The translations under genes and the position numbers were made by a program. A model generated the notes under the pieces. It worked only from the letters and a program-made list of their open reading frames with translations. It was not told where the DNA came from and did no database searches. From contig JAHPZH010000002.1 of the NCBI GenBank assembly GCA_019058315.1, positions 973,910 to 1,037,909 on the forward strand: 64,000 bases of DNA, written 5' to 3'. Shown one piece after another: positions 10,566 through 61,900 of this stretch. Position 1 is the stretch's first letter. Every line of letters starts with the position of its first letter. This DNA comes from Candidatus Helarchaeota archaeon (GTDB taxonomy: Archaea > Asgardarchaeota > Lokiarchaeia > Helarchaeales > RDOG01).

Positions 10566-10871
10566 TTTGTATTGGACTCCTATTTTAAAAAATTAAAATA
10601 ATAGTTATATTTAACCTTTAGATTAAATTATTCATTTAGGAATTTCAACAAGTTTTGATTTCCATTGCAATCTTAAATTATTAGAATATAATAAAGATAA
10701 ATGAGATTTTCTTTTTTAAAATCTGATTTTAATAAAGGGAAATAAACATAAATTTAAATAAATTTTTATTATTTTTAATATATCATTAGGATGGTTGAAT
10801 TTCTAATTTTAGGCTTTGAAATGTCAAAATTAGGGTTTTAATCACAATAATACTAAAATTGGTGAAAAATA

Positions 10872-11027
10872 TTGGATACAGGAAGAAAAGATGAACGTGG
10901 TAGAGAGCTATACAAAGTGACTTGTGCAGATTGTGGCAAGGAAACCGAAGTTCCATTTAAACCAGACGGATCAAGGCCTGTATATTGCAGGGATTGTTAT
11001 AGGAAACAAAGACCTAAAAGGTATTAG
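10872..11027 (+). CDS. CxxC-x17-CxxC zinc-ribbon small protein
   Basis: Below the ORF track cut-off. TTG start after GGTGA; MDTGRKDERGRELYKVTCADCGKETEVPFKPDGSRPVYCRDCYRKQRPKRY (51 aa) has the family signature CADCG..TEVPF.P...RPVYC..C. Confidence 0.92.
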   Translation: MDTGRKDERGRELYKVTCADCGKETEVPFKPDGSRPVYCRDCYRKQRPKRY

Positions 11028-11122
11028 AAAATTAATGTCATGTAAAACGAATTAAAGTCATTATATCTTTCTATTTAAATCAATTTTTTTATTTTAAATT
11101 AATTAATATTATTTAATTCTGC

Positions 11123-25950: not shown

Positions 25951-28900
25951 TTATGAAAATGGAGAATAACCAACTATTCTTCCTATATCTCTCTTAAACG
26001 TATCCCAAGACATACCTAACATTATTTCACTCCTAAATTTTTTGGTTCTAGTTATTTTATATGAATAATATAAAGATCTTTGCAGACTACGAATATTGTT
26101 TTCCATAGTCTTTGGAATAAAAGTATAATCATCTCCAAATGGATTATAAAATAGTTTGGCATCAGGAAATTTATAAACTTGTGGTTCAGTAACTCTACGA
26201 CCAAATAAAAAGGAGGGTTTCTCTATAAGTTGACCAAAAATTTCAATTGACGCTCCTGCTTGTAATGGTCTTCCAAGAATATCCTCATCTAATTTACTAA
26301 CCCGCTCTAAAGGTTCGTAAAACGTCTCTCTGATTGATGGGATGTCGCCCGCTCCTTCCAGACTTGTCAAATAAGCTCTCTGAGCTCTGACCTCCTCTGC
26401 CTTCTCAGCTTTAGACCTCATATCAAAACCTAATTTTCCACCGACCTTTTTAATGGCAGTATCTATACCTTCATCTAAAATATAGGAAATAACTGCACCA
26501 ATAACATAATTTACTACATGACCATAGAAAAATTTAGGAGCATAACCTCCAATTATTGGTCCTGTGTTTATATACCATTGTGCTGCTTGAGGGATAGGAT
26601 TAGAAAATTCGAAATTCGCAAATGCATATCCCGTTCTTGGGGATCCTGCCAATTCTCCAGCTAAACCAGCTATTCCTCTAGCTGCAAGGGTTAAAAGTCC
26701 AGCGTGTAAAAATAATTCTGAAACAGTATCTGCTACAGTATAAGCTATCAATGCTATTGCAGCAGGTGAGGTTGCCCCATAAGAAATAATTGTTGAAGCG
26801 ATAGCGGCAATACAGACTCCGATTTTTACAATTGGTTCGAAATAAGCTGTATACCACTCCCAATCCTTCATAGTGAGTTTATGTAATGCTTTATAACTTG
26901 AATAAGCAAGTTTATAATCCTTATCGATTTCCAGAGGTATACCCATATATTTTACATCTAATAAATGACCTCTACGAAATTCATTCTGTTGTTCTAAGGT
27001 TAAGGAATTGAAATCTTTTCCATAGTTTTCCATTGCATATTGTTCTGGGTCGTAATCGTATATTTTAATTGTCAACCATGGTATTTGAACTTCTGCTCCA
27101 AGCATACTTAGCCAAGAATTCCAAATAAAATTATCTAATGGATAACCAAGAGAAACTTTATGGATATCTTTATTTAGATCCAGTTTAAATGGTTCTGCTT
27201 CATTTGAGGCATATACATAGGTAATATAGAACGTACTATCTGCCTTAGGAGTGTCTCCTACCCATTGGATCGAATTATAATATGGACTCTCTTCATCCTT
27301 TATATGTTTATAGTCAATATCTTTATAAAAGACCGTCTCATATTGAATAGTTATGTCATTTCCACCAGGAGAGTAAGGGGCTCCGTCCAGATAAAGGTGG
27401 ATGGTAAAAATGGGTGATTTTAATAGAAATTCCTCGATTTCGACGGTATACTGGTATCCTGAATTTATTTCATCTGTATAATCAAATGGTTGATTAATAT
27501 TTTGATCAATAATAATCATATTTTCATGATCTAAAGGGATATGAGTTAATTCATAAGAATTTGAGGTTGTAGATTCAAAAGTGTCAAGTTTTATGCCTTC
27601 TACATTAATAATATTTCCAGATTTAAGTAAGAAATTATATTCTTCTGAAGGTAGATATTCATATGCATCTCTTGCTTCTTTCATCCAGGAAGAATCTTCT
27701 TCCTCACCATATGAATTTTGAAAATTGCTCTCAATCCATATATATGCATTATTCACATCTGGGAAATGGGCTTTTAACGCAGCATCGAGTCTAATTTCGA
27801 ATGTTATATCCTGCAAAATAACGAATGGTAATCTTAATAATGTACCATAAGTATTAAACATTTCCCATTCTAATGGCTCTGAGGTAGCTATCCTTAATTG
27901 TAATGGTTCTCCAAATTCAGACCAACCAAATCCAGGGTCCCGTAAGGTTTTTTCATTAAATGGCATATCCGGATCTGTATATTGCTCATATAATTCCCAG
28001 TCTGTGTAATAACTCCTATAATCATGATCATTTATCCCCATATGACTAAAACCAGTGAAATACCCATACCAATCAGCACCCCATACACCTCCAAATAAAC
28101 CAGGTTCCGCAAGGTCAGAAAGTGGGAGCGGAGGACCAAATAGAACTTCTGGCATCATTAAAAATGCAGTAATTGGCATGACAAGAAAGTTTAAAGCATG
28201 AAAAAGTGGAGCATACCAAGTTGGTAATACAGTACCCCAAGCTTTGTTATAGATTGGTCTATTAAATGAATAAGTAGCAGGAATAAAGTCAGTCGTGACT
28301 GCTGGCCAATATCCTTCCCAATCAATACCAAAAGCACCAGTAGACGGATTCATATCAAGTAAATCGAAGCCAAATACACGTTTATGGATATTCCCAATCA
28401 TATTCTTATATCTATTACTTGTTATTGTGGTTAATTGTTGAAGTGTAATGAAATTTGTTATATATGCAGCGGTGAAACTAGTATTTAAATGGAACAAAGT
28501 AATCGGGTTTTGACTCATAGTATATGCTACAAATCCTCCACCATTATCATTTGCTTGAATAATACAAGGTATAGTGACTCCATCATATGAATTTCCAAAT
28601 CGGGCAAAATCAACTATTATTCTATCATAATAATCAATCAATGGTCTAACAAGTACTCCATAATTGGGAATATAGGGATCATTTAGACCTTCCCACATAT
28701 ATTTTCCATTATCAGTAGGTATTACTTCTCCTATACTTTTATTTATTTTGTAAGATGTATCAAGCAACGCCCATTTTATCCAATCCATATCCCTATTTTC
28801 TTCAAATTCGTCTTTATCCCTAAAATTAGTCTCTGCAGCCCAGTAATAATTAAATTCCATAGTTATTGATGGTGTAATAATGACTCTATAAGAATTATAT

Positions 28901-31900
28901 TTGTTAACCCAAATTCGGAGTTTATTTGTTTTTCCATCTTTTATATATTCATTAAAAGTAATGTCATTTACATGCCCCTCAAATAATACAGTATCTTGCA
29001 AACCGTGAAATTCCTTCCACATGTCAATTATTTTTACATGCATTAATGGTTCTTCCATATTAGGAGGTAGATTATAATTAACATTAAGTATGCTTAACTC
29101 CTCTAGAACTCCATAAGTCTGCGGGATAAATCTAAATTCTATAGATCTTCCGGGAGCAACTCTTTTCTTAAAGTCTATATCTATAATAAGACTATTCAGA
29201 TAGAATTCTTGCCTTATTAGATTAAGAAGTACCCAAATTTCATCAGATTGTAGGTGCATTAAGATATGTGGATCATCATCTATATAACCACTGAAGCCCG
29301 TTAACCAAAACAAACTAGACCAATCAAAAACAAAATGAGCCCCAATAGGAATACCAGCACCGTCAATATCTGGTATAAAGCTTACCAATCTTCCATCAAC
29401 CCAAATTCCACCTTTTAACCAAGCACCTCCAAACCCAAACTCGGGTGGACATCCACCAGATATAATCATGCTGTTAATCTTACCACCAGGCATTATGGGA
29501 ACTTCTACAGATTCATGTCCAATAGTTTCAGTATATGGAAATTCGCCACAGTAATAATAATACCATATATTCATGATTCCATGATGAATAGAGACAGTCC
29601 ATGAGAATGATGGCTCATATGCAGCTTGAGGACCGAATATTTGGTAGTGGTATGAATGACCATTTACATATAATCCCGTATAAGATTCTTTTTTACCATC
29701 TTGATCTCTATCAGGAGCATAAAGGTCGAATGGTGTAAATTCTACAAAACTTCCTTGTTCTGAGAATATGGGATAATAATATTCTTTCATTTCATTTATA
29801 TTTTGATAGAAAATCTCTCCTGGAATATCTAATACAGTATCAATTCCAAACATATCTGGTGATGTCTCTCGTGGTGTACCTTTGGGATGAGAAATATGAG
29901 TAAATGGACGATTACCAGTAAAAATAAATGATCCATAACTTTCGAGATATATTTCTAATAATGAAGCCTGAGCAAAGAAATGAATCCTGTCCTCATAACT
30001 ACCAGATAGAGAGCTCTGATAATCATTATAACGACGTGCATATATGTCTGGATAAAGATCCGAAACTTGTATTATTATTCCATTATATTCAGAAGTCATC
30101 GGTGTAAATGGTCTTCCTCCAATTCCACCCAGAGACCAAACACAAGTAAATATGTCTCTATACATATAGTCTGCAGTTACATTATATCCTCCAATGATAT
30201 GGATTTGATTTGTCATTAATAATGCTGTTGATGTATAGATAGCATGTTCCTTCATAATCATTTCAGAAGCATAATAGGAACTATCGGAATACCATTGATA
30301 AGTAGGATCATAAGCAATTAGTTTAAACCTGCCAGAAGGTAAATTTGTAATATAAATTGGAGAGGTCAAACCATTCCTTGGCGAAAGGCTTTCAATGCAA
30401 AACCTAAACCAATTTCCTGGCTGATGCTCTCCTTCTGCATCGGTCCATGGTATTTCTGATATTTTAATTAAAAAAGTATGTATTTCTCTTTCCAAAAGTA
30501 ACGTATATGTAGCCGTACAAGTTAAATCGGTTGCAATATTGAGTGTGTTATATTCTATTTCTTCCCCATCAACCCATAAAGATACAGGATTTTTCTTGGT
30601 TTGGATAGTAAATGTATACTCATCTGTTGAAGTGATTAGTAGATTGGTGAAGTAATATTTGTTATAGTTTATTTTTAATTCATCAGCAGCATAATGATAG
30701 CCGGATATAGTGACATAATCCATTTCTGAACGAATTATTGGATTATACCATCCATTCATCATTTCAGTTTGTGCATATCGTCCATTTTGGCTTAAGTGGT
30801 TTAAATTAAAATTATAACTAAAAGGTTCATCACTTATATCATCACCGTCTATGTCTCCAAATTTATGGGGTTCAGTGGGTGATACACGCCAATCAATAAC
30901 ATAATTATTTCTCGCATCCGTTCTATAATCTATTCTAATAATTACTGCTTTTGACGGTGCTTTTTTAAATTCTATGATTCCTAATGACTCAAATACATCA
31001 TATGATGAGGGATCTTGTTTTAAATCATCGAAATAGACACCATCTTTATCATTATCCCATGTTAATATTGGAGTATATTTAAGTTGGAATACAGCATTAA
31101 TTCCATCATTACCATATATTCGCTCTTTTTCAATTCTTTCAGGATTAAAAGCTATTGGTCTTTCTAAAAATTTATTAAAATAGAATGTAGTAAGCCCGAA
31201 GCTAGTTAAAGGTTCACTATAAGGTGCGTATTCACGGTATATTAAGTCGAAATATCCATCCACACCTGTCGATTGATATGAATTTAAATATATATTTCCG
31301 TAATAATATGGTTTCTCTACACTATTCTCTTTACACATCTGATCCACATAATATGGCAAAAATACATTGACAAAATTCCATGATTCTATATCTGTTTCCA
31401 ATGGAATTTCCCAATCAATGATTGAAGACTCAAAACTCTCCGCACTTGTGAACCAAATGGTTCCGAGCAATGTTGAAGCATCAAAACCATATAGATCGAC
31501 ACCTAAAGCGAGGGGTGGGGTTTTTATTCGTTCTATATAAATTAAATACTCACCATCAAGGAGATTCCAATGATCACCATCATGGAATTGAGAATTTGAA
31601 AAGCCATTTAATTCAGGATCGTATGCTATCATTATAGTTTCATTGGGTGGACCATACAATTCAATTATATTTGTACTTCCTATTAAAAGTTCAGAACTTG
31701 GAATGTCAATTGAACACCAATACCATTGATTATTTAAAACTTTGACTTTGAACTCATAATTATTTACTCTACCTTGAATTCTAGGTGATGTAGAATAGAT
31801 TAAAGCTTTAAGAGAAATAGAATTATATTTTAAATCCTCTGGATTATTACCAATTATTATTGACTTTTGCAATTTCTCGTCAGTTATCAACTCCAAATAG

Positions 31901-34900
31901 AAATCAAACTCCCCATTAATTTCCGTAGCTCCTGTTTCCCATGCTATATATGAATAAAATCGTTCCTTATCTTTATAAATTATCCCCATATAAAATGGAT
32001 CAAAATTTTGCGATGTTATACCTATACTGTTCAATCTAGCTTTTCTAAAATTGATTATAAAAATTGTCCCATCAGAATAAATATTTAAAAATTCAATTTC
32101 TGCATCTCCATTTTCATTAATTGTCACTAAATAATCTTGATTATAATTGAGTTCAACACCATCAATCATAACATTATCAATTTCGGAACTCCACTCCAAT
32201 ACTGGATAAGATGCAAAAATATATTTACTAGTTCCCATTTGATATGTTATAGATGTACTTTGGGAATTAAATCCATAAAATAAATCGGTTGGATTTATCT
32301 CTAGAGTGTATTCTTTCCCTATATTTTCCTCAACAGTCATAGGATAGGATATTCCATTAATTGTTAAGATAATGTCTTCAACAGTGCTATTGATATTAAA
32401 GTGTAAATATGCCTTTTCTACGACTTCATGATTTAATATTTCAATATTTGACGCAATTTCTTTTGTTGCGATACCATTTGTGTAATATCTATAATTACTA
32501 TAAAGATTAAAACCTTCAATAGGATGGAATAATTGTATAATTCCCCTACCATCTATATCATAAACGACTTCAAAGTCTACATCTTCAATTAGTCTGTCAT
32601 AATCTGAATAAAGATTGTCGATTTCATCATCCCAATCTACAATTGGATATTCTAATAACTCATATTCTCGATCAATTTCAAGAGTTTCAATATCGAGTTC
32701 ATTATTATATACCCTATAATGGAAGGTTAAATCATGACCACCCGATCCCAAATTATTTACCCAACTTTCAGCATCTTGAGTTAATATTATTTGAAGTTCT
32801 TCGTTTATTTCATTAATTTGTACTGTATAATCAGTTCCATATTCTAATATCTGTTCATTAGATGATCCTTCATTATCAATTACTGTGTCAATTATAGGGT
32901 CCCATACCACAGCAGGAGAATAGATTAAATCATATATGAAAACTCCAACGATAAAAGTCTGGGTTTCTATACGATCCTCGGATACCCTATAAGTAGCTTG
33001 AATTTCACCATCGAAGTAATTAAGTAGTTTAATTACAGCTCTTGAGTCAGGAAGGATATAAATTTCAAAGTCGATTCCTAATTGAAGCGGATTTCCATCA
33101 AGTAATACCGAATCAATACTATCATCCCATGGCAATATAGGGTATTGATCTAATGCAATTTCCCAGCTTGAGGGATCATAACCTAAATTTTCATCCTTTA
33201 TACTTAAAGTATTATTTATTATGTAATAGCTTTTATACTGGCTTTCTTCATATCCATAAAAGTAGTTATATTTCACCTTTTCTGCAAAGAGTCTCGTATC
33301 TTCAATATTTTCGATACCAGATGATGTTAATTCTATTTCAGCTAATTTTATTCCTGTCAAGAAATTAGGAGGTATTGCATCCTCTATCTCTTCTATTTCT
33401 TCTCCTGAAATAAGGAATACCCCAGTTTTATTTACAATAACCAGATCAATTCTTTTAAATCCAACTGTAGGTAGTGGGGTCTCTATCGTTCCATAATTAA
33501 ATTCTGTAGTATGGATGTAGCGTCTATCACTATTTGGGAACTCAATATAACCGTTATTTATTAATAATTGAGTAGCAGTTACTGTTTCGACTTCTAGTTC
33601 ATCATCTCGAGTCGGATCATCAACGATAGATCCTACCCTTGCCCAGTCTGAAAATTCACCTGGCCATTCTGAGCTCTCGGTAGAATCTGCAGGGTCTTTT
33701 ATGATTTCTGTTGGTTTCCAGAACCATTTTAATGATGGATTGTCTTCAATAAATAATGGGGAGATTGGATATGTTACCATAGAATCTATTATTCCAGAAT
33801 ATAAACCTTCAATAACTTCAGAATCACTTTGGATAAATGATCCTGTAGTCTCAAAATCTTCAATTAATTTATGTAATGGAATTTTTTGATTAAAATTCAC
33901 TGTTGGAAATTTAACAGTCGTATCATAGTTCAAGCAATTTCCAAACCAGAGCCTTAAGACATAACTAAAACTATCACCCTTTTGCACTATGGGATGGTCT
34001 TTACAGAATAAAATTTTGGTATTGTTAGCGTTTTCAAGCGTTCCCAAATGAGTTATTGAGATATCATCATAAGATGTCTTATATTCTCCTTCGATTTTAA
34101 CTTGTCCCAAATAATTACAATAATTCTGGAACCAAGTTGGGTCTAGACTGAATAATGTTGAATCATATGTATTTCCATTGATAGTTGCTGTCCATGAATC
34201 TTCTTCGATATTTAAGTCAATTTCTAAGTTATATGGTAAAGTTGCAGAACTTTCTATGAATACTTGCCTCTCTTCTATTATTCCATCTTTTGCTATCACG
34301 AATTTATAATATATATCATAACCACATGCTCCATCTGCTACTGCCTTAATATAAAATTTGAAGTAGTTATTTTCATCAAAATAATAAGGATAAAAATTGG
34401 CTAATTCGTATAATTCGCCCGCGGGAGGAACCCACGCACTACCCGTATCTAACTCTTCTATGACGAGTTTCAAATTGTAACCTTTATGCCAACTCCTTTT
34501 AGTAATTAGATTTTGCTCACCCGTTAATATTAATTTTTCATCCTCAAATGAAGGAGTACCTCCCCCGTCAATATAATCCCAATCCGATAACTCGTCTACA
34601 TTTTCGATATTAGTAAAGAACTCATAGAATTCTTTTGTGCCCTGAATTAAATCAAGACTGTCAATAGCTCCAGATAATAATTGAGCTCCCATTCCAAGAC
34701 CATTATCATTAAATATAGCTACCCAATCACTACCCTCTTGATATGTATCAAATAACATTGAAGAAGTTAAGTTGAATGGAATTGTCTTGACATCGTAACC
34801 AGTTTCTTCAGAATTCCATGTCATTGTTCTTTTAAGTTCAGTCATACCCCCAGAATAAAACATTGTATTATCTTCGATATCCCAATTCTTACCACTTCCT

Positions 34901-37900
34901 TTTGATTCGGTTATGACATAATCCTCACCCTCGGATATTATTTGAGTATCTGGAATTATATCATAAGAATTGATAGGATATGAGACGATTTCTGACATTG
35001 TATACTCCATATTATCTGAATTTTTACCAAGATCGCTTGCATATTCCGGCATACCATGTGTATATATTCTATGGAGTATCTCACCATTTAGATCAGTTAT
35101 TGTTACATTATCAATATACATTATCAATTTTCCATAATCATGTTCCAAAGCTACCTCAAAACAGGATGTTGTTTTTGTTTCGAAATTAGATAAGTCGATC
35201 CTCCGATGATACCATTTATTCCCAAAAAGATCAGTCTGGGGTGAAGCACTTATTCCATTCTGATCAACTGCATTTCCAGAACTCATCCATGTAGCATCAG
35301 TGAAATATATATCTACTGCTGCTTGACATGGGGTAAATAGGTAATCGGGAATTATTTTTATATCATATTCCAGAAAATTATCTGATTGTATCGTAATTGT
35401 TTGTTGGCTAATATCTGGGTACCAATAAGAATCTACACTTGGATCTAGGGCTTGGGCGGTAAATTTAATATGGTCGGGTCCATTATTGGAACTCTCAAAA
35501 TTCACTTCTCCGTATAAAATTTTATATATAAAAGCAAGTCCCATTGACTCACCTTGAGAAAATTCCACACTGTCGGATTGAACTTCTACAATTTTTGATA
35601 AGTCAGATTCCTCAAATGGCGCATTTGATACAATCCAAGATCCAGATTTATAGCGATAATCCACTTGGCTATTAAATAGGAATGGGGTATCGACACCAAA
35701 ACTTTTTAACAAGATTTCCCATTGAATCCAGCTTTTTATAGTTCCTTGAAGGATAATGAATTTATCTTGCGAGTACCATGAACTCCACTCAATATCTCCT
35801 AGTTCAGCAATACTGTCTGCGGTCTTATATCTAAACTCGATTTCTGTATTAGGTGTATTTTGATCTATTTTGGTAATAGCTGCAAAATCAATTTTTTCAC
35901 CCAGATATATCGGTTCCGTAGTTATGTTACCAGTTGGATAATACGCATCTATATGAACCGGATATAGACATATCCATGAATAATAGTTTGAAGTATAACT
36001 TTTTTTCGGCACCCGTCCATCTGAATAAAATCTAAAAGCTACCCTCTTCTCACCGCTATAACTGGAAACGTCTATATTGGCATAACCATAATCGAACTCA
36101 ATATAATTAGTCCAGTAGTTATGTATTTGCTCGACTGGTATCTCTGTGGTTATGTCTAGGTTCGTCCCAGGATCGTAAATGTATAATTCTAAATATAAAT
36201 CAATGTATCCCGTCCCCCTCGATGTGTAATTCATACTCCAGAGAAAATTTATTGAACCCGCACCAGTCAGATCTACGTCTTGGTATATAATATGCTCGAA
36301 AGTTCCAAGTTTAGCTTCGTTTTTAGAACTTAACACTTCATGAAAATTAACCGCATTATTGGTATGAATTATTTCACCTATATGACTTCCACCACTGCCG
36401 CTAGTTCTTGTCATTTGGGCTTTTTCACAAATCCAATAATCGGTATCCCACTCCCACTCCGTTAATGGATCGTCTGGATTTAAATCGTAAATTCCCTCAT
36501 TACCAGCATGATATAATCTTGTATCTGTAGAAAAATCGTAATCGGGTAAAATATCATCATTTGTATATTCTTTAAGTTGCCAATGCTCATCTATTACATC
36601 TCCGGTTGGATAATACACATCTATATTAACTGGATTCAAATATATATATGCAAAAAAGCCCCTTGTGTTGAGCATATCATCTGTTACCCACCCACTCGTA
36701 TAAAATCTAAAAGTGACTCTTTTTGTCCCTTCATAATTAGAAATATCTACATTGAGATACCCTTGATCAACTTGATTTGCAGTCCAGTGCTTATGTATTT
36801 GTTCTACTGGTGATATTGTATTTATATCATCTTCGGGCTCATGGATATATAGTTCTAAATTTAAATCACACCATGTTGATCCATCAACTTCATATTTCAT
36901 ACCCCAGAGAAAACTTATTGTGTCTGCACCCGTTAAATCTACGTCTTGGTATATAATATGTTCAAAAGTTGAACTTTTGCTACTACCACCCTTATTAGTG
37001 GTGTGATCCGAAAATTCTACTGCGTTATTAGCATGGGTTATTTCTCCTACATGATGTCCCCCACTACCACTAGTTCTTGTCATTTGAGCTTTTTCACAAA
37101 TCCAATTCGAATACCAATCCCCCGTAAAATCATCAAGGATGACATATTCTAAATTACTATCATGTAATAAGTGGGTATTGGTAGAAAAATCATAGTCGGG
37201 TAGTACCGTATCATAAGGATATTTTTCATACTCTAAATCTTCCTCGATAATTTCTATTGTATCAACTATTGTATGATCTATTGTATAATCGGTTAAATCT
37301 AAAACTTGTCTACTATCATAATAATCAGATTGTCTAAACATTACTAGACCTTTAGCCATTTTATTATTTACCCATCTATATTTCGCAGAAACCTTAGAAT
37401 TAAGTGGTGCGGGAGCTGAAAGTGTGACAATGCTTGTATCTAGATTAACACTATAACCCGTCTGTTCTACATCCCCAGATCCGGTATCAATATAAATATG
37501 ATCATTACTACCCCATGCTATTGGCAAATGAGATAATTGATATGTATCTGTCAGACCATCCGCACTTTCATCTAAAACTTCGTATTCATTAATAATTGCA
37601 AATGGTTCTTGTGAAAACCACCAGTATTGGGAATATCCATTCTTGACGGGAGAGAAGAATGTGCTTTGGCTCGAAAATGAACTGTTAAGTTGTATAAAAT
37701 CTATATATAATCTTATTTTTTCGGTCGTAGCTTTTGCAGCTATTAATTTTATTTTTAAAGTGTTTGATCCATCTATATAATCTTGTAAGTTTTCAATTTC
37801 AAATGGTTCGGTCAAGGAAAGTATATTAGAATCACCTTGTTCTATTATATCCCAATTTGTGGTAAGGGGATTATATATAGCAATCCATGTTTGCGGTATA

Positions 37901-46900: not shown

Positions 46901-49900
46901 GCATCTGGGAATAAAGCTGTATTGTCTATATAATTCACTTGTAAAGTATCTTTATATCCATAAAAAGTCGCAGGATTTTGATTGGAGACATATGTATCAT
47001 TACAGATCGGTTCTCTTGTAGATAATGCGGCTAGAATTTTAACTTCTTCTTGGGCATCCAGATTAAAATTACCAAAAGTAATTGATGCTCGTTCTCCTAA
47101 ATCTGTGAAATGATGAAATTTGTCAATTTCATAGTTTAATCTCACAATAAGTTCACCATTTGCTGATGTAATTGTGCCTCCATCGTTACTTAGAATATAT
47201 ATGTCATTTTCATAACCCTCAAGATTCCATTGGATTCGATATTCCCTTTTATAAATTGATATAAAATTAATTTCATATTTAGTAGACCCGCTTCCCATGA
47301 TATATTTGATTTTTAACAGACTCCCATCTGTTAAGGTTTGTATTGAAGTTATATTTATATAATTACTATCTTGGTTGATTTGGTAATTAATGGTATCTAC
47401 ATCCATATCACACCAACCCCATATCCAATTTTTATATTGAACTTGAAAATTTTCTAATTCCTTCAAACTTGTTCCAGTTATATCAAAAATCTTAACTCCA
47501 TTTGGTGTAAAGTGATATAGAGATGTCGGATTTTTAACAATAAAATCATTATTTGAAATTGGAGTATATTCATAGCTTACCCAATAACCATCGACATTAA
47601 TATATTCATAATTGGAAAAAATTAGCTGTTTATACCTATATATTTCGGGATCATAATATAACTCCCAATATTCTCCCATTTCCAAAAGATTATAATTTGA
47701 TTCTGTCTTAAAAGAGGTAAATACATCTCCAGCTGCATACGATGATAGTGAACCCGCTGCATAAACATTATTTTCGAAATTATAATCATATTCAGGAGTG
47801 GCTATAGGAACCATTTCTTCATATTTATTATTATATATCTTAATTAATTCAGAATCCAAATACTCATAAGTAATGTCATAAAAACCTATAGGTGGATCGG
47901 TTAAGATTAATTTCTTTTCTAACTCATTTATGATATAATCATTAAAAGGTGTACCATCTATTAGCAGGTTTTTGATATTAATTGGGATCTTTAATAATAT
48001 AATCTCATCATTAACTATCGATCCCGTCTCCACAGTCTCTTTTCTTAATTTAATAACATCTTTAATTCGAATATTGAATTTAAAATCCCCATCTTCAATT
48101 CCATTCTTTATAAATAAATAATTATAACCTTTTTCTAACCATACCAATATTTCTTTTTCTATATATTCATTATTACCAAAATTTTCGTTGATAATCTCGT
48201 ATCCATTAAAATTCACAACAGCGCATCCCTTCATTTTAAATACTAAGGTTGCTGTGGATTCTACTGGACTCCATATCCCAGTCCAACCATATGCCATTAC
48301 ATTTATAGGTTTTACCAAATAACTTACAAAATAATTATCATCTCCCCAGGGAATACTTTGACCACCAATAGTTATTAGCCCTGTTTCATAGTCAAGATGA
48401 TAATAACCTCTACCAAGACTATATAATTCATCTAAAGTTGCTACTTGAGTTAAGTATATATGTTCGTCAGTAACACCATCTTCATCAGTATCGCTATAAT
48501 CATTATAATACACATAATATATCTCATAAATAGGTCTACATGAAAGAACGAATTTTTGATTAGTTTTTGCTAATCCACGAAAACTATCTCTTTTAATTGC
48601 TTGTGTTGGGTAGATATTTTTCATATAATCATTAATATCGATCCAATTACTAGATGAAGTGTAATAATTCCATTTCACTTCCAAGTTTTCAACTTTATAT
48701 TCTCCAGCATTATCTATATATACATATTCACCATCCCAAGATTCATTAATCGGAATTAAATAAGTCTGGTATAACTCTTCTGCTATTTCTTCAATTTCTA
48801 TTGCTGTTTCTTTTATTGGATCATGATAAAAAGTAGCTAATGCAGTTAATGAAGTAATTTCATTATTTGTTGTTAATTGATTTTCTATCAAAGAATTAAA
48901 TATTTTTAATTTCCACTGAACCATTGGGTCAGATGTCTCGATACGGACCATTATATAGTGATATCCCTCATTTAAAAATATATGATCTCCTTGTTGTATC
49001 GATCTTGAATCTAAATATATCTCAAAGTCGGAAATTCCTCTATAATATTCAGGGATAAGTGCGATCCATGCATTACTATCCATATATATGACTGTATAAT
49101 AGTATTTGATTACGTCTGCTTCAGCAATTACAGTATCTACAATATAAAATTCTGAAAAATTCGGGATTACTTGGTTGTTTGTAAATGTCATTGAATCAAG
49201 GGTGTTTCCTTTCTCCTTTATTATACGATAATGAGTTAAGAAACACATGAATTCAGAATCTCGTTCATTTAATTCTTCTAATTTAAATTTAATTTTTTCT
49301 AATTTTTTAGATGAACTAATTTGTATCGGAGATTGGATTTTTGCAAATTGATTAAGGGGGACTAAGTTTGTTGCTAAATTAGGATGAGTACTAAATGAAA
49401 ATTGATCCTCTGTTCCATCATCATAAACTAATATTATACTAAAACGTCCATGGTCAAAAATACTTGAATCAGAATCATAAAGCATAATTTCTGATTGTAA
49501 TATATAACTGTTTTCAGGTTCTAATTCTTCATCAACAATGATTTCTATTTCATTTTTTTCTAGATCATCACTTTCTGCTATATTCAAGATTAAAGTGCCA
49601 TCATCCATCAAACTATAAAAAGAATTTACATTGGTATTGATGTTAGTATTATCGAGTGAAGTAATATAATATTGTTCATCTAATTCAATCCCGTATACAG
49701 AGATAAAATCAAATAATGAGTAACCTTGATCATGATTATTGAATCCTATTCCCAAAAGTTCGAAATCATGTTCATCTAAATTTGGAGGTGGTGTAGGTCC
49801 ATAAATTTGTGTTACATAGTATTCATAAATTAATTTATGTAAATTAATACTTTTTAATTCCCAATCTATGGGTATACCGTAATTGGAATTATCAATAGTT

Positions 49901-52900
49901 ATAGTAGCAGATACGCCAGTCTCCGTATCTCTTACATATAACTCGATACTCAGATCAGTCCCCGCTGAGTCTGAGTATGAATATGTTATATTATAGTTAT
50001 CCACCCCAATATACGGTTCTCCACCAAATGTTATTAAATGATTTTCTAAATCCACCGTATATTCATTATCAATAGGATTCTTTTTTACTCTTTTAAGAAC
50101 TTTCCCTGTATTTAACTCTGTAATTGAAATGATATTTTGTATTTCATCCCAAGTATCATATTTTGTCCCAATAAACCATGAATAATCGTATACATAATTA
50201 ATATCAAATAACATATCATTTCTATCAATAAGTTCAAAATCTTCTGAAGTTATCCCTCCTTTTTTCCACGCCCAAGTCATGAAGGGGGATTGTGTAATAT
50301 TAACTGGCTTAAAGTTATATGTCCAGTTTCTCACAACATGATTTAAACCATCTAATATTGATTGAGAAATATTGTAGGATATAGATTGATAAAAAGCATC
50401 AAAAGAAGTAGAAAAACAATCATCTCCCTCTTCCCAATTAATACCTTCTTCTCCAAACATTAAGGTTTCATTTAATGTAAAATATGTGTCAGAGATTATT
50501 GTATCTAATGAGTCTTCAAAAGGAGAAAGCCAAGTAGAAATTGTCCCATCAGCTTGAATATCAGTTAAAAACAGTTCTGTATAAGGTGGCGTTCGCCCAT
50601 TGATATGACTTTCACTAATAGGACCCACTCTTATAGTAGTTGAAGATTCCGAACCTATATTCATTCCATAACTCAATGCTTGATATTTTGGTGAGTTAAT
50701 CCACCAAGTGGAACGGAGTGGAATAGTACTTAGACTATAGGGATGATAACCCCACATTGATATGCCCCATAGATTTTCATCATCGCCTAAAATCATCCAT
50801 TCAGGATTATGAGACATTAACCAACCCATGTCACTATATTCAAATGTATTTTCAATATCCAAATTTCCATAAGGAAGTAGATCATCTGAATAAACATGGG
50901 CAGAAGAATTTAATGAAAAAATTGCTCTTACTAATTCGCTTTCATCTATGTCATATGTTTTGACTTTTATATCAACAAAACCTGAATCGTATATGGTGAA
51001 ATAACAATCTGCATGTTTTGAGTTATCTTGAGTGGATGTTTCAACAAGAATTTCAACCCAATCTAATGTCTGGTCAATAAGCTCTATATTGTTTACTTTA
51101 TCTAAATATCCTTCAGTAGTCGCAATCATAAAACTACTATTTAGATTATTTCCAAAATATGTTATATTCATAATCCCCGGTCTAGATGTCGGAATTTGAA
51201 AAGTATCAAGACTATTATCAAATAAATATCCAATTGTATATTGTGGTGTTTCATAATAATCATCAGTTCCAACAAATTCTGCTTTAATTTTATATACAAA
51301 TGGGTAAGAACCACCAAATTCTAAGTTGCATAAGTAATCATATTCTGCCCAGCCGTCATCATTTGTTAAAGCTACCATATTATCTACTAATGGAACATCA
51401 TCAGCATAATTAAGTATTGAGAATTTGATATTTCTATTCGCCACAGGGATGCTATAATCTGATTGTAATAAACGAGCTTGTAGTTTTATAGTCTCAAGAG
51501 TATTACCATATTTATCCTTTACATTAATTGCCAAATTGTCATTTTTAGTTGCAGTCTTAATAATATAAACGAAATTTGGTTTGTAATAATCATTCCCTAA
51601 AAATTCTGCTTTAATTGAAAATGTCAAATCAGGTGGTAGGAAATCAAGATAAGTTTCAATAAAATTAATCCCATTTGAATCCAAATTACTCTCACCTATC
51701 TCAATCCAATTTATAGGTTGACCATTTGTATCAAAATCGATAGAGTAATGATATTTTACACATCCTTCTGTAATAGGACTGTTAAATGGAGTCACCAATT
51801 GTGAGCCCATTATCACCAAGTCGTAAAATTGGATTGGTCTCCCTTTATTTGATTGTATATAGATATTATTATCATTGAATATAGCATCTTGTTTTGTTAT
51901 TACAATGTTATATATTGGAGATATTCCGTGATTGCCTTTCCCAACATCACTTATTTGTGCACCCTTTAATCTTGGATTATCATAAATCCCACTCTTAGCC
52001 CTAAGTGTTACCTCTCCATCTGTGAATAAATAATTTTTCAATTTTGCAGCTGGTACATTGAATGGAATTGTATAGCTACCATCTGAATTTTCTATTATTG
52101 CATTTGTCCCATCTGATTTTTTTAATGGTGTATATTTATATGACGAATCTAAAGTGCCGTATTCAAAATTCATAAATCCTTCAGCCCAACCATCTGGTTT
52201 TATTTCTGGAGTTACATCTGATAAAGCTAAATAAACATAGATAGCATACTCGCCTGCTACCTCTTCTAAATACCAGTCACCTGTATAAAGTAAATCATCT
52301 ATTGAATCTTTTTGTGTCCAAATAAAAGTTGAAGGACCACTTCCCAACCCTAAAATTGGTTCTGTTGACATTTCAAAAATGGGATTTAATCCATGCAATT
52401 TTATTTTCATCCCGATAATTTCATCATATATGTCTCTTATGATTATAGTATCAGGATTAACTAGTAATTGATTTATAATCACAGAATAACTATCAGTTCT
52501 ATATATTATATCATCATCATGCCATAGATATACATAACCATCAACTACACTGTGTTCAGGATAGACTACAGGTGGAGGATTAATTGTGGGTATCACAAGA
52601 AGTTCTGGATCATAGGCTGTGACTTGTAATTGGATTTCTTCTCCATATTCGGCGACTCCATCATTGTCTGCTTCACCAATATCAGTTACAGTTATATCAT
52701 TAACTATTGGAGATGTTGTATCTAATTCAATATACAACACAAATAATTCTTTTTCTTCAACTTGAGACAACCAACGTTGTTTATCATAAGGATTTAATGT
52801 ATCTACCTCGATTCGATAAACTGTATCACCTACAGGAGCGTTTAAATCAAATTCAAAGTTACGATCAATTATATCATACTTCCAATCTTCGATTAATTCT

Positions 52901-55900
52901 TTTGGATCTGTATTATGCTGCCACCAATTTGTGTGTGTGTCATGGAACAACCATTCACTTGTACTCCAGTCCCAGTAATATACATTAATTTTAATAGCTT
53001 CTACATGCCGATCCCACTGATAGATACCTCCAAATAAATCTTCTTGATAACTACTATGATGATGTGTTTCAATAGATTCCTCAGCATCATCAGGAATTTC
53101 ATCTGAATTAAAGCCATAGTCATCATTTGTTGATACTTGAAAGATAATTTTTTTCGAACTTGTAGAGATAGTATCTCCCTGTTCATAATCTCCTTTATCA
53201 TCATTTTCATTTAATTTTATATAAGCAGTTTTCCAAGCTTCTCCAGAATAATCTAACATTACAGCACTAATATTTGCTTCTGGTGGAAAATCCTCAGTAT
53301 ATTGAACTACAAGTTGTGGTCTCCTATTTGGGTTAGGGTTATTCGAAGTACCAATACTTTTTTGTTTCCAATGGAAGGGTTGGTGAAATTCTCCACGAAT
53401 GGGTGGAGTATCTGTACCTGTATATAACGGATCAAATAAGTCCTCGAATTCATCATTATTAGACCAAGGGATATTCCAACCGTTTTCTCGTAGGGAATCT
53501 ATTTGATACCAATCCAATAAAGCTTTATTGCTTCCTGTATTTGCGTGTAATATCATTTGAAAATATTCTTCATTAAACTTATCACGCATTTTATAATCAG
53601 GATCATAATTTTTAGTTTCCCCAGAAGCTAAACCAGCTTCCATATTGAACCAAAATTTATATCTACCTGTATCAGTCATAACAGTAGATGTTATCCTATC
53701 ATCCCAATCCCCTGAATCTACATGCCATTGACTACCTTCCCACCGATCACCTTTCGGGTAACCAAAACCTGGAATTGGATATGGACACCAAATAAAATGA
53801 TTTGGATAATCTCCTTGATCATTTCCTCCTCCATCGCTATCTGCCCCGTAAGAGAAGAAATTATTCATCCAATCCATTAATTGATATTCACCACCTGGAT
53901 TCAATGTAGGTTCATAATAATAATAAGGACCACCGGGAAGGGAACTGCTAAGATCCCATTCTGTTATTGAAAAAGAAAATTCTAGAAACTGAGAACCCAA
54001 ATTCGGACCGAATTCGGGGTTGTAAGTTCTATAACTTACAGTGGAGAGCTGATCCATTATTACATAAGGAGGCGAAGTTAAAAATAATATTTTAGCATAG
54101 CCCTCTCCTAAATATTCGATATCATAATCGACTCCATATTCAAGGTAACCTGTACCAGGGATATATACGGAATCGACAAGAGGATCCCATGGAATAACAA
54201 ACTGATGAGTGAGAGTATAATCCTCAAAGTCGAACCAAAATTCATCTATCCTATTTAATATCGGATCAATTTCTTCAAATCGAAATTTGATTTTATTTAA
54301 TTCCTTTATTATAAAGCCTAATGGCTCTGTTTCGGGTAAAAGATATTCATAAAGATTAAAATAATCCATAATGGTTAAGTCAATTTCTATTGGATTGGAT
54401 GTCCACTTGATACCTAGCTCATCTGTATATTCTTCAATAGTTAAACTCGTGATTGCAAAATCTGATTGAAATATTTTCCCTTGAAAAAAGGTATCAGGAT
54501 TAATTTCAATTGTTTCTGAACTTATTATTTCAAACCAATCGAATTCTTCAGTCCCTGTAAGATATACCCCAGTCCTTTCTAATTCAAAATATATGGGCTC
54601 ATGTTGGTAACTAACTGAGATCTCAGAGCCTTCTTTTGGTGGATATTTGAAAAATACAGTTTCACTATCTATTATTGAATATTCTGCTTCTAATATGTCT
54701 CCTCCTAAGACTATATATTTGATATTTACTAGATCATCCCCTGATGGTAAATATGGGTCCACTCCTTGGAATAAATTGATAATTTCGCTGTTGTCTCCTG
54801 TCCGAGTATACTGAAATCCACCAGTGGAACTAGGACTATCAGTATAAATAAATTCATAGGTTTGTATTGCTTGTGGATCTGGTGGATCGAGAAGAGCATT
54901 TAAAGTTACAGTGACTTCTTCGATTGAATCTAAATCAAGATCAGGTTTTATGGTTAATATAAAGCTATTGACTAACCCATCACCTTCAAAATGTTCTTTC
55001 ATTTTAACATTGTATAATGTATCAATTCTTTTACCTAATTGATAAGCATTTTCGGAACCACTTGCAATGAAATATTGAGTTATATCTTCGGGTTCTAAAG
55101 TCTCTGAGGCGTCAGTATTGAGAGAAAAACTCCAAGTTCCATCAGTTAAATCTGATTTATATATTAATTCGCGATCAACTTGAGCTGGTCTGTCATCAAA
55201 ATTAGACCACTCAGGGATAATTAAATGCCCTTCGACACCATAATTATCCCTATCATGTGGATTCTCCACCCAACCTCCTGGTAAACCCGGGCCTGGATTT
55301 GAGACATAATACCAATCAGAAAAACCATCAATTCCGTTATCTATTGGCAAATCACGAACCCACACATCCAAATATGAAAGTGGTGAAGGTTGCTGGTTTT
55401 GATCCCAGATTATATCAGTTCTTTCCCAATTTTCAATCTGTTGTCCCGAATATACAAAAATATTCATAGGGTAATGAGTTTGGGGGTCAATTATATGTGC
55501 AAAATCTCCATAATATCCAGGAAATATATGAAAAGGGATATTAGTTCCCATAGCACACCAATCGCCTATTAACATTTCGGGATCTGCAAAATCACCCCAA
55601 TAAGCATCACTTTGCATTATTCTAGGGTCATAAACATTTACTAAATTATTAAGTAGATAATGTGTTCCACCCATATAATTAAAACTCGTTCTTGAAAGCG
55701 GAGTACCTAAATCATCATGGTTATCAAATAGACTGTTTCCTGAATCGGGTAACGGGGCAAGTGGATAACCAACTGGGTAAAGTTGCGAACCTCTATTATT
55801 TCGCCTATAAGGAGGATACCAACACCAATCATATAATTTAATTGGCCACAAAACTATCCACTTGACCGGAATTCCCCATGGGCCTGGTAACCATACTTCA

Positions 55901-58900
55901 ATTGGGATATATGCCCAATCCCAATCCCAGTTAGAATATGTACTCCAAAATGTCCAAGACCAATCTTCAACAAGTTCGTCCTTGAAGATTTTCTCATTAG
56001 GATCGATTTTTATTGATTGACCTTTCTGTAATGTTAGATTATAGAAAATTATATTGAATTTGACATTATTTAATCCAGGATTTATATTAATTTTTCGTGA
56101 AATATTATTAGAGACATCGTTAAAATCTATATTCAAAAAGAATGTATCATTTTTATAAAAATTTACAGAAGAAAGAGAATCAATTTCTAAAAATGAATCT
56201 GTAATATATTGTGTTTTATACCATTCAGAAATACCAAAACCTAAATAGAGAAAGAAATGGTTATGGGGATCATCGGAATATGTGCAATTAGTAAAATCGG
56301 TATAATTCCCAACTTCTTCGTAATGAATCCAGATTTGATTAATTTTATTTGCCTTAGTACCTATCTTTTTTGCAATATAATCATATATATTTAATGTATT
56401 AGTCTCATTTAGATTAAAATTTATTTGTTCAGTCTCTAAGACTGTACCGTTTTCTAATGTGACATTATTAAAATAAAGTTCTGCTGAAACACAAGGACAA
56501 TGATCAGGTTGGTATGTTAGGATACAATTTTCATTTATATCTATACTGACATTTGATTTCCAATCGAACCAGTCAAATATTTCAGTTTGATTAAATTTTA
56601 TTCCATAGGAAGTGCTATTGAAAAAATTAGGAGGATGACTACTATTAAGTACCCAAGATCCATCAGAAAAGTCAGAATCATATAATGGTTTATAAGGAGA
56701 TGGATACCCTACTTCAATATTATCAATATTGGGCACGTAACCTGACCACCTAATTTGATATTCCTTAGTTTCATCAGCTGTTGAAAGAAAATCCACTGTA
56801 ATTTTAAAATCTCCGAATCCAAACCTCCAATCTGTTGATAATATACCTGAATTTGTATAATCTTTTCTTCTAATTATTAATGGATCTTGTAATCCATCCA
56901 CAGATGTACTATTAGTTATAGTGACTAAAGTACCATCTATTTCAATATAAGTTTCAAATTCTGTTTTTATCGACTCTTCTAATTGCCAACCTCCGTTATT
57001 AACATATAAATCCCAATGACTTTTATTTAATATCAGTTCTGTATTGTTAAAAATATAATATCCAGTTGAATTAATTATAAAGGTTCCACTGGGATGCTTA
57101 ATAAAGAAATCATCAATCGAATTTTCGTGAAAATGATATGGAAGCCAAAAGTCGCCATAATTTATGAATACATTACTTGAATAATAGTATTTTGAATAAG
57201 TTCCATCAGTAGTGTTCATAACTTTTTCCCAATTAGGTCCTCTCTCGATTAGTTTTATGTTCGGTGCACCTGCTGCATAAGATGTAAACTGATAGGTAAG
57301 TCCAGAACCTGGTACTTCTACTATTACATCCTCTATACCATCACCATCTTTATCTGTGGATTCTACATTTAATCCATAATCACCCTTTTCGAATAATGAA
57401 TATAATCCACTTAAACCTCCTTTCCATAAATCATACTCATTTGCTGTGATAGAAGTTGATAGAGGAATTCCTGTTATCATACTAAATAAAATCTTAGAGG
57501 TTTGTTGGCATTCGTCATTAAAATTAATACTATATTTAGTATTTTCTGTCGGATACATATGAACAAAACTAACTAATCCTTTACCCCATTGCCCAGTGAA
57601 TGGATCCGAAAAATCTTCTGATTTAGCCCATTCAATCTTTAGATCTTGCTCAGAAAATTGGGTTGTATCAATTGGATATTCGGATATCCAGAAAGACTGT
57701 GTACTAGTAATTCCCTCAAATATTGTACAATCAGTTCTAAATAAAACTTGATTATCAACTGTAAGTTGTTTATTATAGACATCCATCTCAGCAATATGAT
57801 TTTTTGCATAGTTGAAGTCATTAAAATTATCTATCGAATGTATTTTTATATTTAGAAAGTCAAAAAATATTTGATCATTATACATAACATCTTCATCCAA
57901 CTTGAAAATTTTTACTTTTATTTCACCGTCTTCAGATATGATTGGGTATATATTATCATTTAATACAGAATGAATCTCGAATAATTCCTCTTCATCTTCT
58001 ATATATATCGAACTATAACTGTTCCAATTATTCTCATCATAGTCGTAAAATGCAATAACTAGATCACAATATCCAACACCAGTAAATTGATTAGTGACTC
58101 CTCCATCCATTGTACTTGGATTATCAACAAGGATATCTTGATCATAACGATTAGATGATGATGGGATATTGAATGACCATTCAATATAGTCCCTAGGAGT
58201 CACAGGGTATTGTGGAATTTTTGATATTATTGGTAGCCAAAGTACCCCTCCTGATGGTATTTCATATCCCCAAAATGGTGGATCTGGGTCGTTTATTTCA
58301 AATTCAGCGTCTCGCCCATTAATAGTGGTAGAAAAAACAGTGTCTTTATGGACGTATTTTGATGAAGTGCCACGAATTCGAATATAACCAGTTGAAAGTT
58401 CAGCGTACTTATAAGCTTCAATTTCTAGATCTATATGATAATTCCTTAATTCTGGAAGTGGAATCCCATTAAATATAAAAGTACTTTCAAGATATCCACC
58501 TTCTGGAGTTAATGTATAATAATTATTATCTTTCATTTCAAGAGGTGTAATATCATTAAATTTTTCTAAAAATATATTTGAAATTGTAATATTTCCAGCA
58601 TTTTTAATTCCAAATACCAAAGAGAAATCATCAGATATAAAACCAGAAGTTGGAACTGTAAATTCAATTTCTTTTGTACTAATCATTTCAGAATCATCAG
58701 TATTCCAAGTAGTCCATCCTGCAGTCTCAGGCCTATCTTCGTAAAGGAGTCCATTTTCATTTGGATAATCTGTAACAATAAAATAGAAATATGAATTAGC
58801 ATAATTTTCTAAAATAGAATAATCAAACTTCAGCTTATATGAAACTCCTTTATCCAATATTAAATTTATAGGATCACTCACTAAATAATTGTAATAATAA

Positions 58901-61900
58901 TCAGGACCTTCGAAATCATGCTTTATATTATTACGGGCCTTAATTTTATTACTTTCTTCATAACATTCATATTTTGGTGTTGTGGATTCATAATAATTTG
59001 ATTCAATTTTTAATTTATCAATTAAAATTTCAAGTGTTAAACCATTTGTTAATTTTGTAAATAGGATAATTTTAACACGAATTATTCCATTCTTTATAAA
59101 TGCTAGATTTATCTCTTCTGATAAGTCATTTGGGACAGTAGTGATATCCTTTGGAATAATTGTTGTCAAGTTAGTCCAAGAATTGAATTTCCAATTGTAC
59201 ACCATTATATAAAATGAAGTTTGATCTTCCGCATCACGGTTTGTTCCAATTTTATATTCTAGAGAAGTATCAATTATATCTTTATCTAATTTTTCTAAAT
59301 TAAATTCAAAACCAACTTGGGACATGTAAGCAGTTTCATCTCTTAATTTCAAATAATCCGTATCTAATTTATTAGAAATTTTATAATATTCGCTATCTGA
59401 ATTGTCAAGATCATTAAGATCATTATTAGGATCATCTTGACCAAATAAGATTAAAGATGATTCAGGAATTTTGTCTATATACAATTGATCCCAACCAACT
59501 CTATTAATATTAAATATTGAATTATAATTTTCTGTTAAACTCAATATTTCTTCTACTATTTTACTTGGTCCTACAGGGGTTGGGATATACGATTCTAATT
59601 GATACTGTTTAAGATAGTTTTGGTAAGATTGATAAAATATTTCACTGTATGGAACAACTTTATTTTTATAAAATACAAATTCAAGTGGTCTTGTATAAAC
59701 ACTCACGTATTGATTACCTAATATATTAACCCAAGTCTTAAAAGTTGTATGTTTCTGTCGATCATCATTAATATTTAAAAACGTGTATGGTAGAATACCA
59801 TTTAAATTTATAAAAATACCTGAATGAGATGTGAAAATCTCTTGTAGTTCCAAATAATTGACTATGCGAGTATTTAAATAACCTTCTAAATATAAATTTT
59901 CTAATAACATGTAGGCAGTCGTTAGAGCTACATCTAGTGAAGTTCCCATAAATGGTAAATCTGGATCCGCAAATATGTAAATTGGAACTAATTTATTATC
60001 AGAGGGATCGTATATAATCGAAGAATAAGTTTTTGCTGCGGGAAATTCTTTATACTTTTCTATTATGACATTATTTTGTGTTAGATTCAACTCATTTGTA
60101 ATTACTCCTATTATATAAATTTCTTTAAATTCTGTCTCAACTTTTTTCTGAGGGTTCATAGAAATGAAATGATCTACATGGATTTTTGCTTGACCCAAGA
60201 TGAATTGTTCAACATTATTTTCATTTAATCCAGCCCATATTATTAAGTCGCTCGTTCTGTATACTGCTCTAATTGAACTACCTAAACTTAGAAGGTTTGG
60301 CTCAATAAAGATGACTTTTTGTTCAAATAGATCGATATCGTAATGAACATTTAATTCTAATATGGTCGACACTCCGTCTTTTTCCATAATAATAGAATCC
60401 CCTTCAGTAGTATCCCATTCATAAGGTATCTGGGCTAGTTGTAGATCAGTCTCTAAATTATAATTGTAAGTTAGTATTTCATTTTGTGTTAATAATTGCC
60501 CCTCTACTATTTGTTTTCCTTCTTCATTATCAAAAAAGTAGGAGATAAATTCATCTACATTATTTTCAAAATTACCATCTGTATCTTTGGCAATTTTTAT
60601 ACTATCTGGTATATTATTCTGATTATAATCTGAAATAATGCATCCTTTTGTTACAGTAGCAAATGCAATCGTACCTGATAAATCCTCCACATTTTCCTCT
60701 AATAACGACAAATAAAGTATATCCACATCTTTCACGAACACTGTAGAGTCTTCATAGTGGATTTCAACATATTGCTGATTAACGCCAGCTTCATTATCAT
60801 TAATTGCTGGGATCATTATAAACGAGTCTCTGGGGACTCTGTCAAATATAATTTCTATTGTATCTCCTTTTTCAACAAAAATATCAAATTTTGCCAAACC
60901 TTGTTCATCTCTTGATATATAACCATTATAATGGTCAGTGTTATTATATATCATACTTGAAAAGTCGAATTCGCCGTATCCTATCTCGTCAGTTCTTAAA
61001 TTTCTAATAGAAAATCCCATTTTCGCTGTCGAGGAATAATATGTCCCATTTTGAACTAAGAAAACTCCTCTTATTCCAGCATAATCTCCACTCTCGTCTA
61101 CCTGGGTTCTAACAACCACGTTATGTCTAGATAGGTCATACCAAGTCGATACATAACCATATGCTTCGCTTAAGGGGTGAATGGGATTACTATCACTATC
61201 TTTATATGCACCAAATTCTAAGCCCCAGTTCTTTATTTCATCGAAAGGCCAAGTTTCCATGATTTCGAACTCAGGTATCAATGATATTAGTCCTGAAATC
61301 CCTAAAGTCCTCAGTGCAGTATTTCTGAGAGAAGTTTCAAGAGAGGAATCCAATTCTATTTCATCCATTACAAAATCATTAAAGATAGCATCAGATATCC
61401 ATCGATTTTCATATATTGTGGAAGCATAATCAAGATAATTTAGATATTCTACTTCTATAGGTATTTCTGGTAAAATTGGTTCTTCAATAGTTCCCAAATC
61501 AATCAAATCCATTAAACCTGAGACGAATTGAACAAATACTTCAAAAATATCTCTATCATAATCAGTAAAAATTGGATTTCCTGGATCTTGCAAGCCAAAT
61601 TTTAAAAGATAGTTACTCAGGTCAGAAGATCCTAATAATAGTAATTGTAAGATTGATATCCCTAGATTATAATCTAGACCATTTCGAACCTCTTGTAATA
61701 ATCTGTAGTTCATTTGCCTCAATATTTCAGCAAAAACTTTTAGAAATTGTTTTTTAGTTAAATTTGGATCTTTCAAAATATCTTCTACTGGCTTAAGAAC
61801 TTCTAAAATTAATGGATCTTGGGTAGATTTTGTGGTGGGGACAGAGGATGGAACTTCTCTGCCTTGACTCATCATCATTATAGCTCCTTTCATAAATTCA

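Follow-up and report, generated by a model that had tools for sequence, protein, structure and literature searches.

In several tailed virus-like particles, small accessory domains are inserted into structural proteins and face outward. The tail-tube-like protein g12 (Rcc01695) of the gene transfer agent (GTA) RcGTA carries an extra, flexible and outward-facing insertion domain that has been proposed to bind surface sugars (PMC7296036). In the Dit protein of roseophage R4C the insertion domain likewise projects outward, and a likeness between it and part of the T7 tail fibre has been noted (PMC10276861), while the head-completion protein of phage DT57C holds an inserted domain, DII, at residues 44-111 (PMC10713586). 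Giant genes are known from Asgard archaea generally (PMC8813620). Here, modules related to these virion domains are described from a giant protein encoded in a 64,000-nucleotide stretch (hereafter the window) of a Candidatus Helarchaeota archaeon genome (assembly GCA_019058315.1, contig JAHPZH010000002.1). The open reading frame (ORF) lies on the minus strand and runs from position 25951 to beyond 64000, exceeding the window by 5.2 kb; it stays open up to window coordinate ~69270 and encodes 14,414 amino acids from the first ATG at ~69195. The protein contains nine firm and three probable copies of a diverged, small (~65-85 aa) Ig (immunoglobulin)-like beta-sandwich module. A promiscuous virion decoration module was probably captured once, amplified within the gene and is now used as a bead of a stalk or in adhesion, the direction of transfer and the function being what we infer rather than observe.

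Compared to the GTA-type Dit proteins (PF09343, DUF2460; RcGTA g12, PDB 6tba, 6teb and 6teh; R4C, 8gtc_G), the giant protein has the module alone. The full Dit architecture, a tube-like core with the inserted module in ~200 aa, located beside tape-measure and hub genes, was not encountered; instead the module resides in a 14,414-aa protein with cellular neighbours, and without the tube-like core. The copies are distinguished by a W...D and Y-R signature of their own, the G-x-G-D-G start is missing from most of them, and there are 9-12 of them per chain as opposed to one per subunit in Dit. More generally, virion decoration and insertion domains are single accessory domains on symmetric assemblies, whereas the copies in the giant are scattered along one, probably monomeric, chain. 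The N-termini of T7-type fibres and the tailspike adaptors (PF03906, Phage_T7_tail) are like the giant's module in that they give the best-superposing matches in BFVD; positions 7-73 of PF03906 align with the module of a virus-like Asgard locus (L007), and many members of the module family carry PF03906. In T7 this N-terminal domain docks the fibre onto the tail, while the giant has no such known partner.

The repeat had been noted in the original prediction as about 15 dispersed baseplate-like modules. Both the motif and the ORF are placed as described there, as in-frame translation at all the claimed coordinates shows the motif, and the repeat is real, with nine firm and three probable copies among the ~16 claimed units. 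Eight copies are mutually recognisable: a leave-one-out hidden Markov model (HMM) finds seven of the eight at independent E-values (i-E) of 4e-4 to 1e-11, the eighth (37375-37575) reaching an i-E of only 0.1, and with the full HMM the eight score 61-89 bits, the maximum over 20 locally shuffled giants being 7.5 bits. Iteration of the HMM within the giant halted at these eight. Their pairwise identity is only 14-25% (alignment A1), and a BLAST self-comparison of the giant, a mostly non-repetitive protein, detected only two module pairs. Three residues, W25, D30 and R74, are invariant across the eight core copies and absent from the wider family.

The positions of the copies, all on the minus strand and with residues numbered along the translation of the window (window-aa), are demonstrated by these searches together with a broad HMM, built from the giant copies and 20 module segments from database homologues, and an HMM built from the homologues only. 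Three firm copies stand back-to-back (32455-33201), a fourth is separated from them by ~65 residues on the downstream side, and the remaining copies are dispersed, the whole set being spread over ~11,000 residues. The first of the three adjacent copies, at 32953-33201 (window-aa 10267-10349), has a leave-one-out i-E of 1.3e-11 and a BLAST self-match to window-aa 10427-10513 (E 6.5e-7); the second, at 32680-32976 (10342-10440), has a longer loop (i-E 3.6e-5; 33 bits), and the third lies at 32455-32703 (10433-10515; i-E 5.6e-7; 44 bits), with the downstream copy at 32002-32265 (10579-10666; i-E 5.7e-11; 53.6 bits). Further firm copies are located at 60226-60483 (1173-1258; i-E 3.9e-4; 45 bits with the broad HMM; 2.8e-4 with the homologue-only HMM), at 53998-54255 (3249-3334; i-E 7e-9; 47.7 bits) and at 37345-37584 (8806-8885), the last being nearest to the database family (homologue-only i-E 2.7e-9; 57.9 bits with the broad HMM). 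The copy at 30883-31131 (10957-11039), which was also modelled, retains the N-terminal G-x-D-G motif of the family and is found by the homologue-only HMM at 8e-9. The ninth copy, at 54583-54762 (3080-3139), was gained by the broad HMM with 9.5 bits, a score reached in none of 200 shuffled giants, and is found by the homologue-only HMM at an i-E of 1.3e-5; only the C-terminal two thirds of the module are present in it, the W signature is missing, and its sequence is nearer to the consensus of the family in general.

The next-ranked independent peaks along the giant coincide with three of the claimed sites, 49954-50232, 47836-48045 and 27322-27591, and these are counted as probable, diverged copies because three matches at or above -0.3 bits were observed compared to 0.18 expected per shuffled giant. 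The first (window-aa 4590-4682) has tile scores of 8.6 with the broad and 7.9 with the homologue-only HMM (rank 8) and is not significant alone; the second (5319-5388) scores 2.9 bits, with 0.035 expected per shuffled giant, and a tile score of 12.5; the third (12137-12226) scores 1.5 bits, with 0.06 expected, and tile scores of 9.8 and 6.7. Four claimed units, the first at 54600-55090, those at 48315-48585 and 47565-47690, and the second at 27210-27640, are at the giant's own background by sequence. For 48315-48585 a language-model atlas returns T7 fibre N-terminal, DUF2460 and YomF_N, the same set as for a firm copy, at scores of at most 0.82, and this is only a weak lead; a single-sequence AlphaFold model of 47815-48612, spanning two doubtful copies and free of family bias, was uninformative, with a predicted local distance difference test score (pLDDT) of 29.7. 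The unit at 47565-47690 sits within another internal repeat, one that resembles window-aa 2238-2318.

The homology of the copies to the module family of DUF2460 and T7 tails is demonstrated by profile comparisons. The eight-copy profile A1 matches only 24 of 1.84 billion representative proteins (E<=1e-3). Seven of the ten matches that were scanned hold PF09343 above its gathering score of 30.4 bits (E 1.5e-8 to 6.4e-37; positions ~87 to 187 of 205 covered), and the DUF2460 stretch is the very stretch matched by A1 in most of these seven and a neighbouring tandem copy in the others; one of them begins with an archaellin/pilin-type N-terminus. In the reverse direction, the HMM built from homologues only finds copies in the giant at 2.7e-9, 8e-9, 1.3e-5 and 2.8e-4, and an hhalign comparison of the giant-only alignment to modules taken solely from virus-like loci gave a probability of 88.7% (E 2.6e-6, 63 columns). 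The copy at 30883-31131 matches phrog_11431, annotated as 'virion structural protein' (E 9.8e-5), and its nearest atlas clusters are all DUF2460 and 64-71% viral. At the level of sequence profiles, the copies belong to a module family that covers the middle of DUF2460 (~90-175 of 205), presumably the Dit insertion domain, and positions ~7-73 of Phage_T7_tail, in the N-terminal part of T7-type fibres; tube-like, sheath, Gp23-type capsid and tailspike-type proteins are decorated with it as well. The link to DUF2460 is transitive, so that the copies are diverged relatives of the module and not members of DUF2460 in the Pfam sense. The predicted DUF2460 type thus gains indirect support, while the DUF4815 type (PF16075), also proposed, has no match anywhere in the genome (E<=10). 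PF14349 (SprA_N) also lacks a match in the genome, although this search was uninformative, control genomes being likewise without a match. A sequence search of PDB with the copy profile returned malectin matches only, none of them significant, and tblastn of one giant copy and one viral-contig module gave no match in 50,697 GenBank phage records. RcGTA g12 itself is weakly matched by one of the homologues, P0005 (E 0.0055).

The fold was modelled with confidence. An AlphaFold2 model of the copy at 30883-31131 (83 residues, 12-row alignment) is a seven-stranded beta-sandwich with a pLDDT of 85.3 and a predicted template modelling score (pTM) of 0.76. Foldseek E-values are weak, as expected for a model of this length, and the best-superposing matches are to phage proteins: the head-completion proteins of DT57C and T5 and the HRP29 tail. 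The model matches 9ilp_a and residues 46-113 of 8hqo, which correspond to DII. T7-like tail fibres, together with tailspikes and uncharacterised phage proteins, make up most of the top matches in BFVD (probability 1.0, root-mean-square deviation (rmsd) 2.4-4 A, 20-27% identity). Superposition on residues 87-175 of R4C Dit (8gtc_G), presumably its insertion domain, gave a value of 5.4 (rmsd 2.5 A, 69 aa aligned, 19% identity), compared to 6.7 for domain DII of the T5 head-completion protein and 6.4 for TSP4 of CBA120. Structure alone indicates an Ig-like sandwich and no more; it is from the sequence profiles that the family is assigned. Counterparts of solved structure are found as decoration or insertion domains in Dit, in the head-completion protein, in tailspike N-termini and in a capsid protein, which makes the earlier label 'baseplate wedge' imprecise.

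The module is promiscuous, serving as a surface domain in numerous virion proteins and in some surface proteins of cells, as the 305 proteins matched by a profile of the modules from virus loci (E<=1e-5, with precomputed Pfam annotations) span both types of annotation. Those of virion type include DUF2460, Phage_T7_tail, Gp23 capsid, Phage_tube_2, phage sheath and beta-helix, and most of the well-characterised carriers are virion proteins. On an IMG/VR contig, a protein with two modules is encoded close to the genes of a beta-helix protein and a tube protein. Among 300 other Asgard genomes only three match the module (G044, G187 and G298), all in tailed-virus-like loci. In G187 (L008:396-1940, C280, minus strand) the module is inserted at ~aa 201-264 of a Gp23-type major capsid protein (PF07068, E 7e-53), a form of the domain placed at the capsid surface; in G298 it is part of a 222-aa tube-like protein clustered with a PhageMin_Tail tape-measure gene (E 2.6e-36); and in G044 it is borne by a small protein with a Phage_T7_tail score of 24.5 bits, next to which lies a weak TMP_C match. 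The 26-kb contig of G298 (L017, G298:C134:9000-25872) is tailed virus- or provirus-like in its own right: it gives a weak match to an SU10-type capsid and encodes two tube-like proteins, of which one holds the module, and its genes are co-directional throughout.

The closest cellular parallels are archaeal and bacterial surface proteins with tandem modules (e.g. P0004 from a Chloroflexota bacterium, P0005, P0022 and the pilin/archaellin-like P0023), which, like the giant, represent multi-copy cellular reuse of the module and in which it occurs alongside further Ig-like domains and anchors of membrane or pilin type. PF27067, named YomF_N in the atlas, is annotated on P0004, P0005 and P0034 among the tandem-module homologues. 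The copies in these proteins are near-consensus, scored by Pfam as DUF2460, and strictly tandem, whereas those of the giant are far more diverged and mostly dispersed, and the giant is 15-60 times longer.

As to the origin of the copies, a 123-row tree requires only two label changes for the giant's 12 copies, and constraining the eight firm copies to one clade gave a likelihood above that of the free search (approximately unbiased (AU) test, p = 0.84). The tree agrees with a single acquisition and later duplication inside the gene, without proving it, and names no donor. The giant gene would have acquired the module once, most likely from a tailed virus of Asgard archaea, such a source being suggested by the restriction of the other carriers in the 300 Asgard genomes to virus-like loci. 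The module would then have been amplified and scattered via duplication inside the gene, as suggested by the eight core copies, which share the W, D and R absent from the wider family and can form one clade.

Domestication of a virion-derived module, as originally proposed, is plausible and unproven; the occurrence of the other Asgard carriers in virus-like loci speaks for it, and several observations weigh against it. Outside this sample the module is also arrayed in tandem in surface proteins of the pilin-like, PKD/CARDB and substrate-binding kinds, a Chloroflexota bacterium being the source of one carrier, and cellular-type annotations (archaellin, SBP_bac_5, PKD/CARDB) are found among the 305 matched proteins; as the module thus occurs in clearly cellular surface proteins, the donor need not be a virus. 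The tree has long branches and only 73 usable columns, and the three Asgard virus-like loci are located on short contigs (4-26 kb) of metagenome-assembled genomes (MAGs) and are possibly mis-binned. PF09343 itself has no match on the giant, whether on 1000-aa pieces (E<=0.1), on single copies (E<=1) or in the whole genome (E<=10), and PF03906 is without a match in the genome (E<=10) and in the Pfam scans of the giant; virion-protein models of Pfam and PHROG fail the threshold on the copies, barring one weak PHROG match. The structural comparison is also ambivalent. The model does superpose on phage Dit, neck and tailspike domains, and about equally well on cellular Ig domains, with values of 7.3 for Internalin K and 5.7-6.4 for VEGFR1-D2 and titin.

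A possible though less probable explanation is an old and freely exchanged surface module without any particular viral origin, in which case the giant may have received it from another cellular surface protein, or viruses may have received it from cells. In favour of this, contigs of up to 770 kb encode tandem arrays of the module in proteins of pilin/archaellin-like, PKD/CARDB, beta-propeller and substrate-binding type, and the nearest rows to the giant in the tree, outside the giant itself, are of the cellular-architecture type (P0005, P0075 and P0081). However, the support in the tree is too poor for naming a donor, the 300-genome Asgard sample has its other carriers only in virus-like loci, the atlas clusters with the module are predominantly viral, and the module is found in at least six classes of virion protein. 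A quite unlikely alternative is that the copies are an ordinary cellular Ig-like adhesin repeat, the likeness to phage proteins being due to a common fold and a chance motif. The similar superposition on cellular Ig domains would fit this, but the profile homology is independent of the fold, holding with the homologue-only HMM and in hhalign, the database matches of A1 coincide with the DUF2460 stretches, and identity in the structural alignments is 15-27% to phage matches compared to 4-9% for most cellular Ig matches. That the giant gene is part of a virus or mobile element, its modules still being virion or element parts and not domesticated, is very improbable: some Asgard giant genes are located on mobile elements (PMC8813620) and the module-rich segment has no orthologue in 40 relatives, nor among the database proteins covered by the search, which measure 1354-3865 aa, but the neighbours are cellular, the GC content matches the genome, capsid, portal and terminase genes are absent nearby, and PHROGs over window-aa 2851-12400 reveal no further virion-like domain, the sole other match being to phrog_11157.

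Under the favoured reading of a single capture from a virus followed by amplification, the giant is predicted to be an N-terminally membrane-anchored, acidic and beta-rich extracellular stalk. A hydrophobicity scan of the full protein locates transmembrane (TM)-like segments at aa 421-439, 858-876 and 883-901 and a weaker one at 14119-14137, and the ~13,000 residues between them form an acidic body (D+E 15-17%, K+R 5-7%). The modules would be exposed structural beads of this stalk, as in virions the domain invariably occupies an exposed, accessory position and the giant looks like a membrane-anchored acidic stalk. By analogy to the Dit insertion domain, proposed to bind sugars, and to the docking T7 fibre N-terminus, they may also bind glycans or proteins weakly, and thereby probably aid adhesion to partner cells or particles.

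The remainder of the giant is nearly blank in Pfam. Scans of the whole protein as 14 pieces of 1000 aa (E<=0.1), and of single copies (E<=1), gave only weak Ig-type matches, among them a few around window-aa 6350-7500 that are sub-threshold or barely supra-threshold. The N-terminal 1732 aa, outside the window (L018:110-5305, minus strand), hold three of the TM-like segments and, directly after the first of these, at aa 461-559, a weak match to PF00432, a prenyltransferase/terpene-cyclase-type alpha-alpha toroid, that falls just below threshold (E 1.6e-5). Within the giant, ~220 aa have recently been duplicated in tandem at 35896-37260 (minus strand, window-aa 8914-9368); the blocks share 45-61% identity and form by far the most similar repeat pair of the giant. 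A second repeat family, unrelated to the module, links 47482-47745 to 57046-57285 (minus strand, window-aa 5418-5506 and 2238-2318; 28% identity, E 5e-6). The phage family phrog_11157 (3825 positions, function unassigned) matches 44065-44514 on the minus strand (E 9.7e-9; aa 795-944 of the piece 43900-46899), over Big_13-like Ig repeats, while the 1000-aa piece enclosing 33285-33600 has no PHROGs match (E<=0.01) and no Pfam match (E<=0.1). The genes flanking the giant encode a subtilase, a CoA ligase, an amidohydrolase, a radical SAM protein and AsnC-type regulators, and are located in a 5.8 Mb genome of ~30% GC.

A more far-reaching version of the capture, in which the module taken up and multiplied by the archaeon in its giant surface protein is the one with which its own tailed viruses adhere to their host, so that the cell now binds the surface glycans recognised by these viruses, is unlikely. 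If true, the protein could help the cell attach to syntrophic partners, or it could work as a decoy or shield, soaking up the interactions between virus and receptor or blocking them. Irrespective of this, the analysis indicates concrete virus-like loci in three Asgard genome bins and, on the reading preferred here, would document that structural modules have been exchanged between Asgard archaea and the tailed viruses, still little known, that infect them. The giant is a genuine example of a cell protein that reuses a virus-associated building block. Ig-like domains common to virions and cell-surface proteins are already well known, and the result is in this respect useful and not surprising. 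It provides a first handle on an otherwise unannotatable Asgard protein of 14,400 residues, as exposed modules of virus tails and capsids form a recognisable family to which at least some of its ~150 domains can be assigned.

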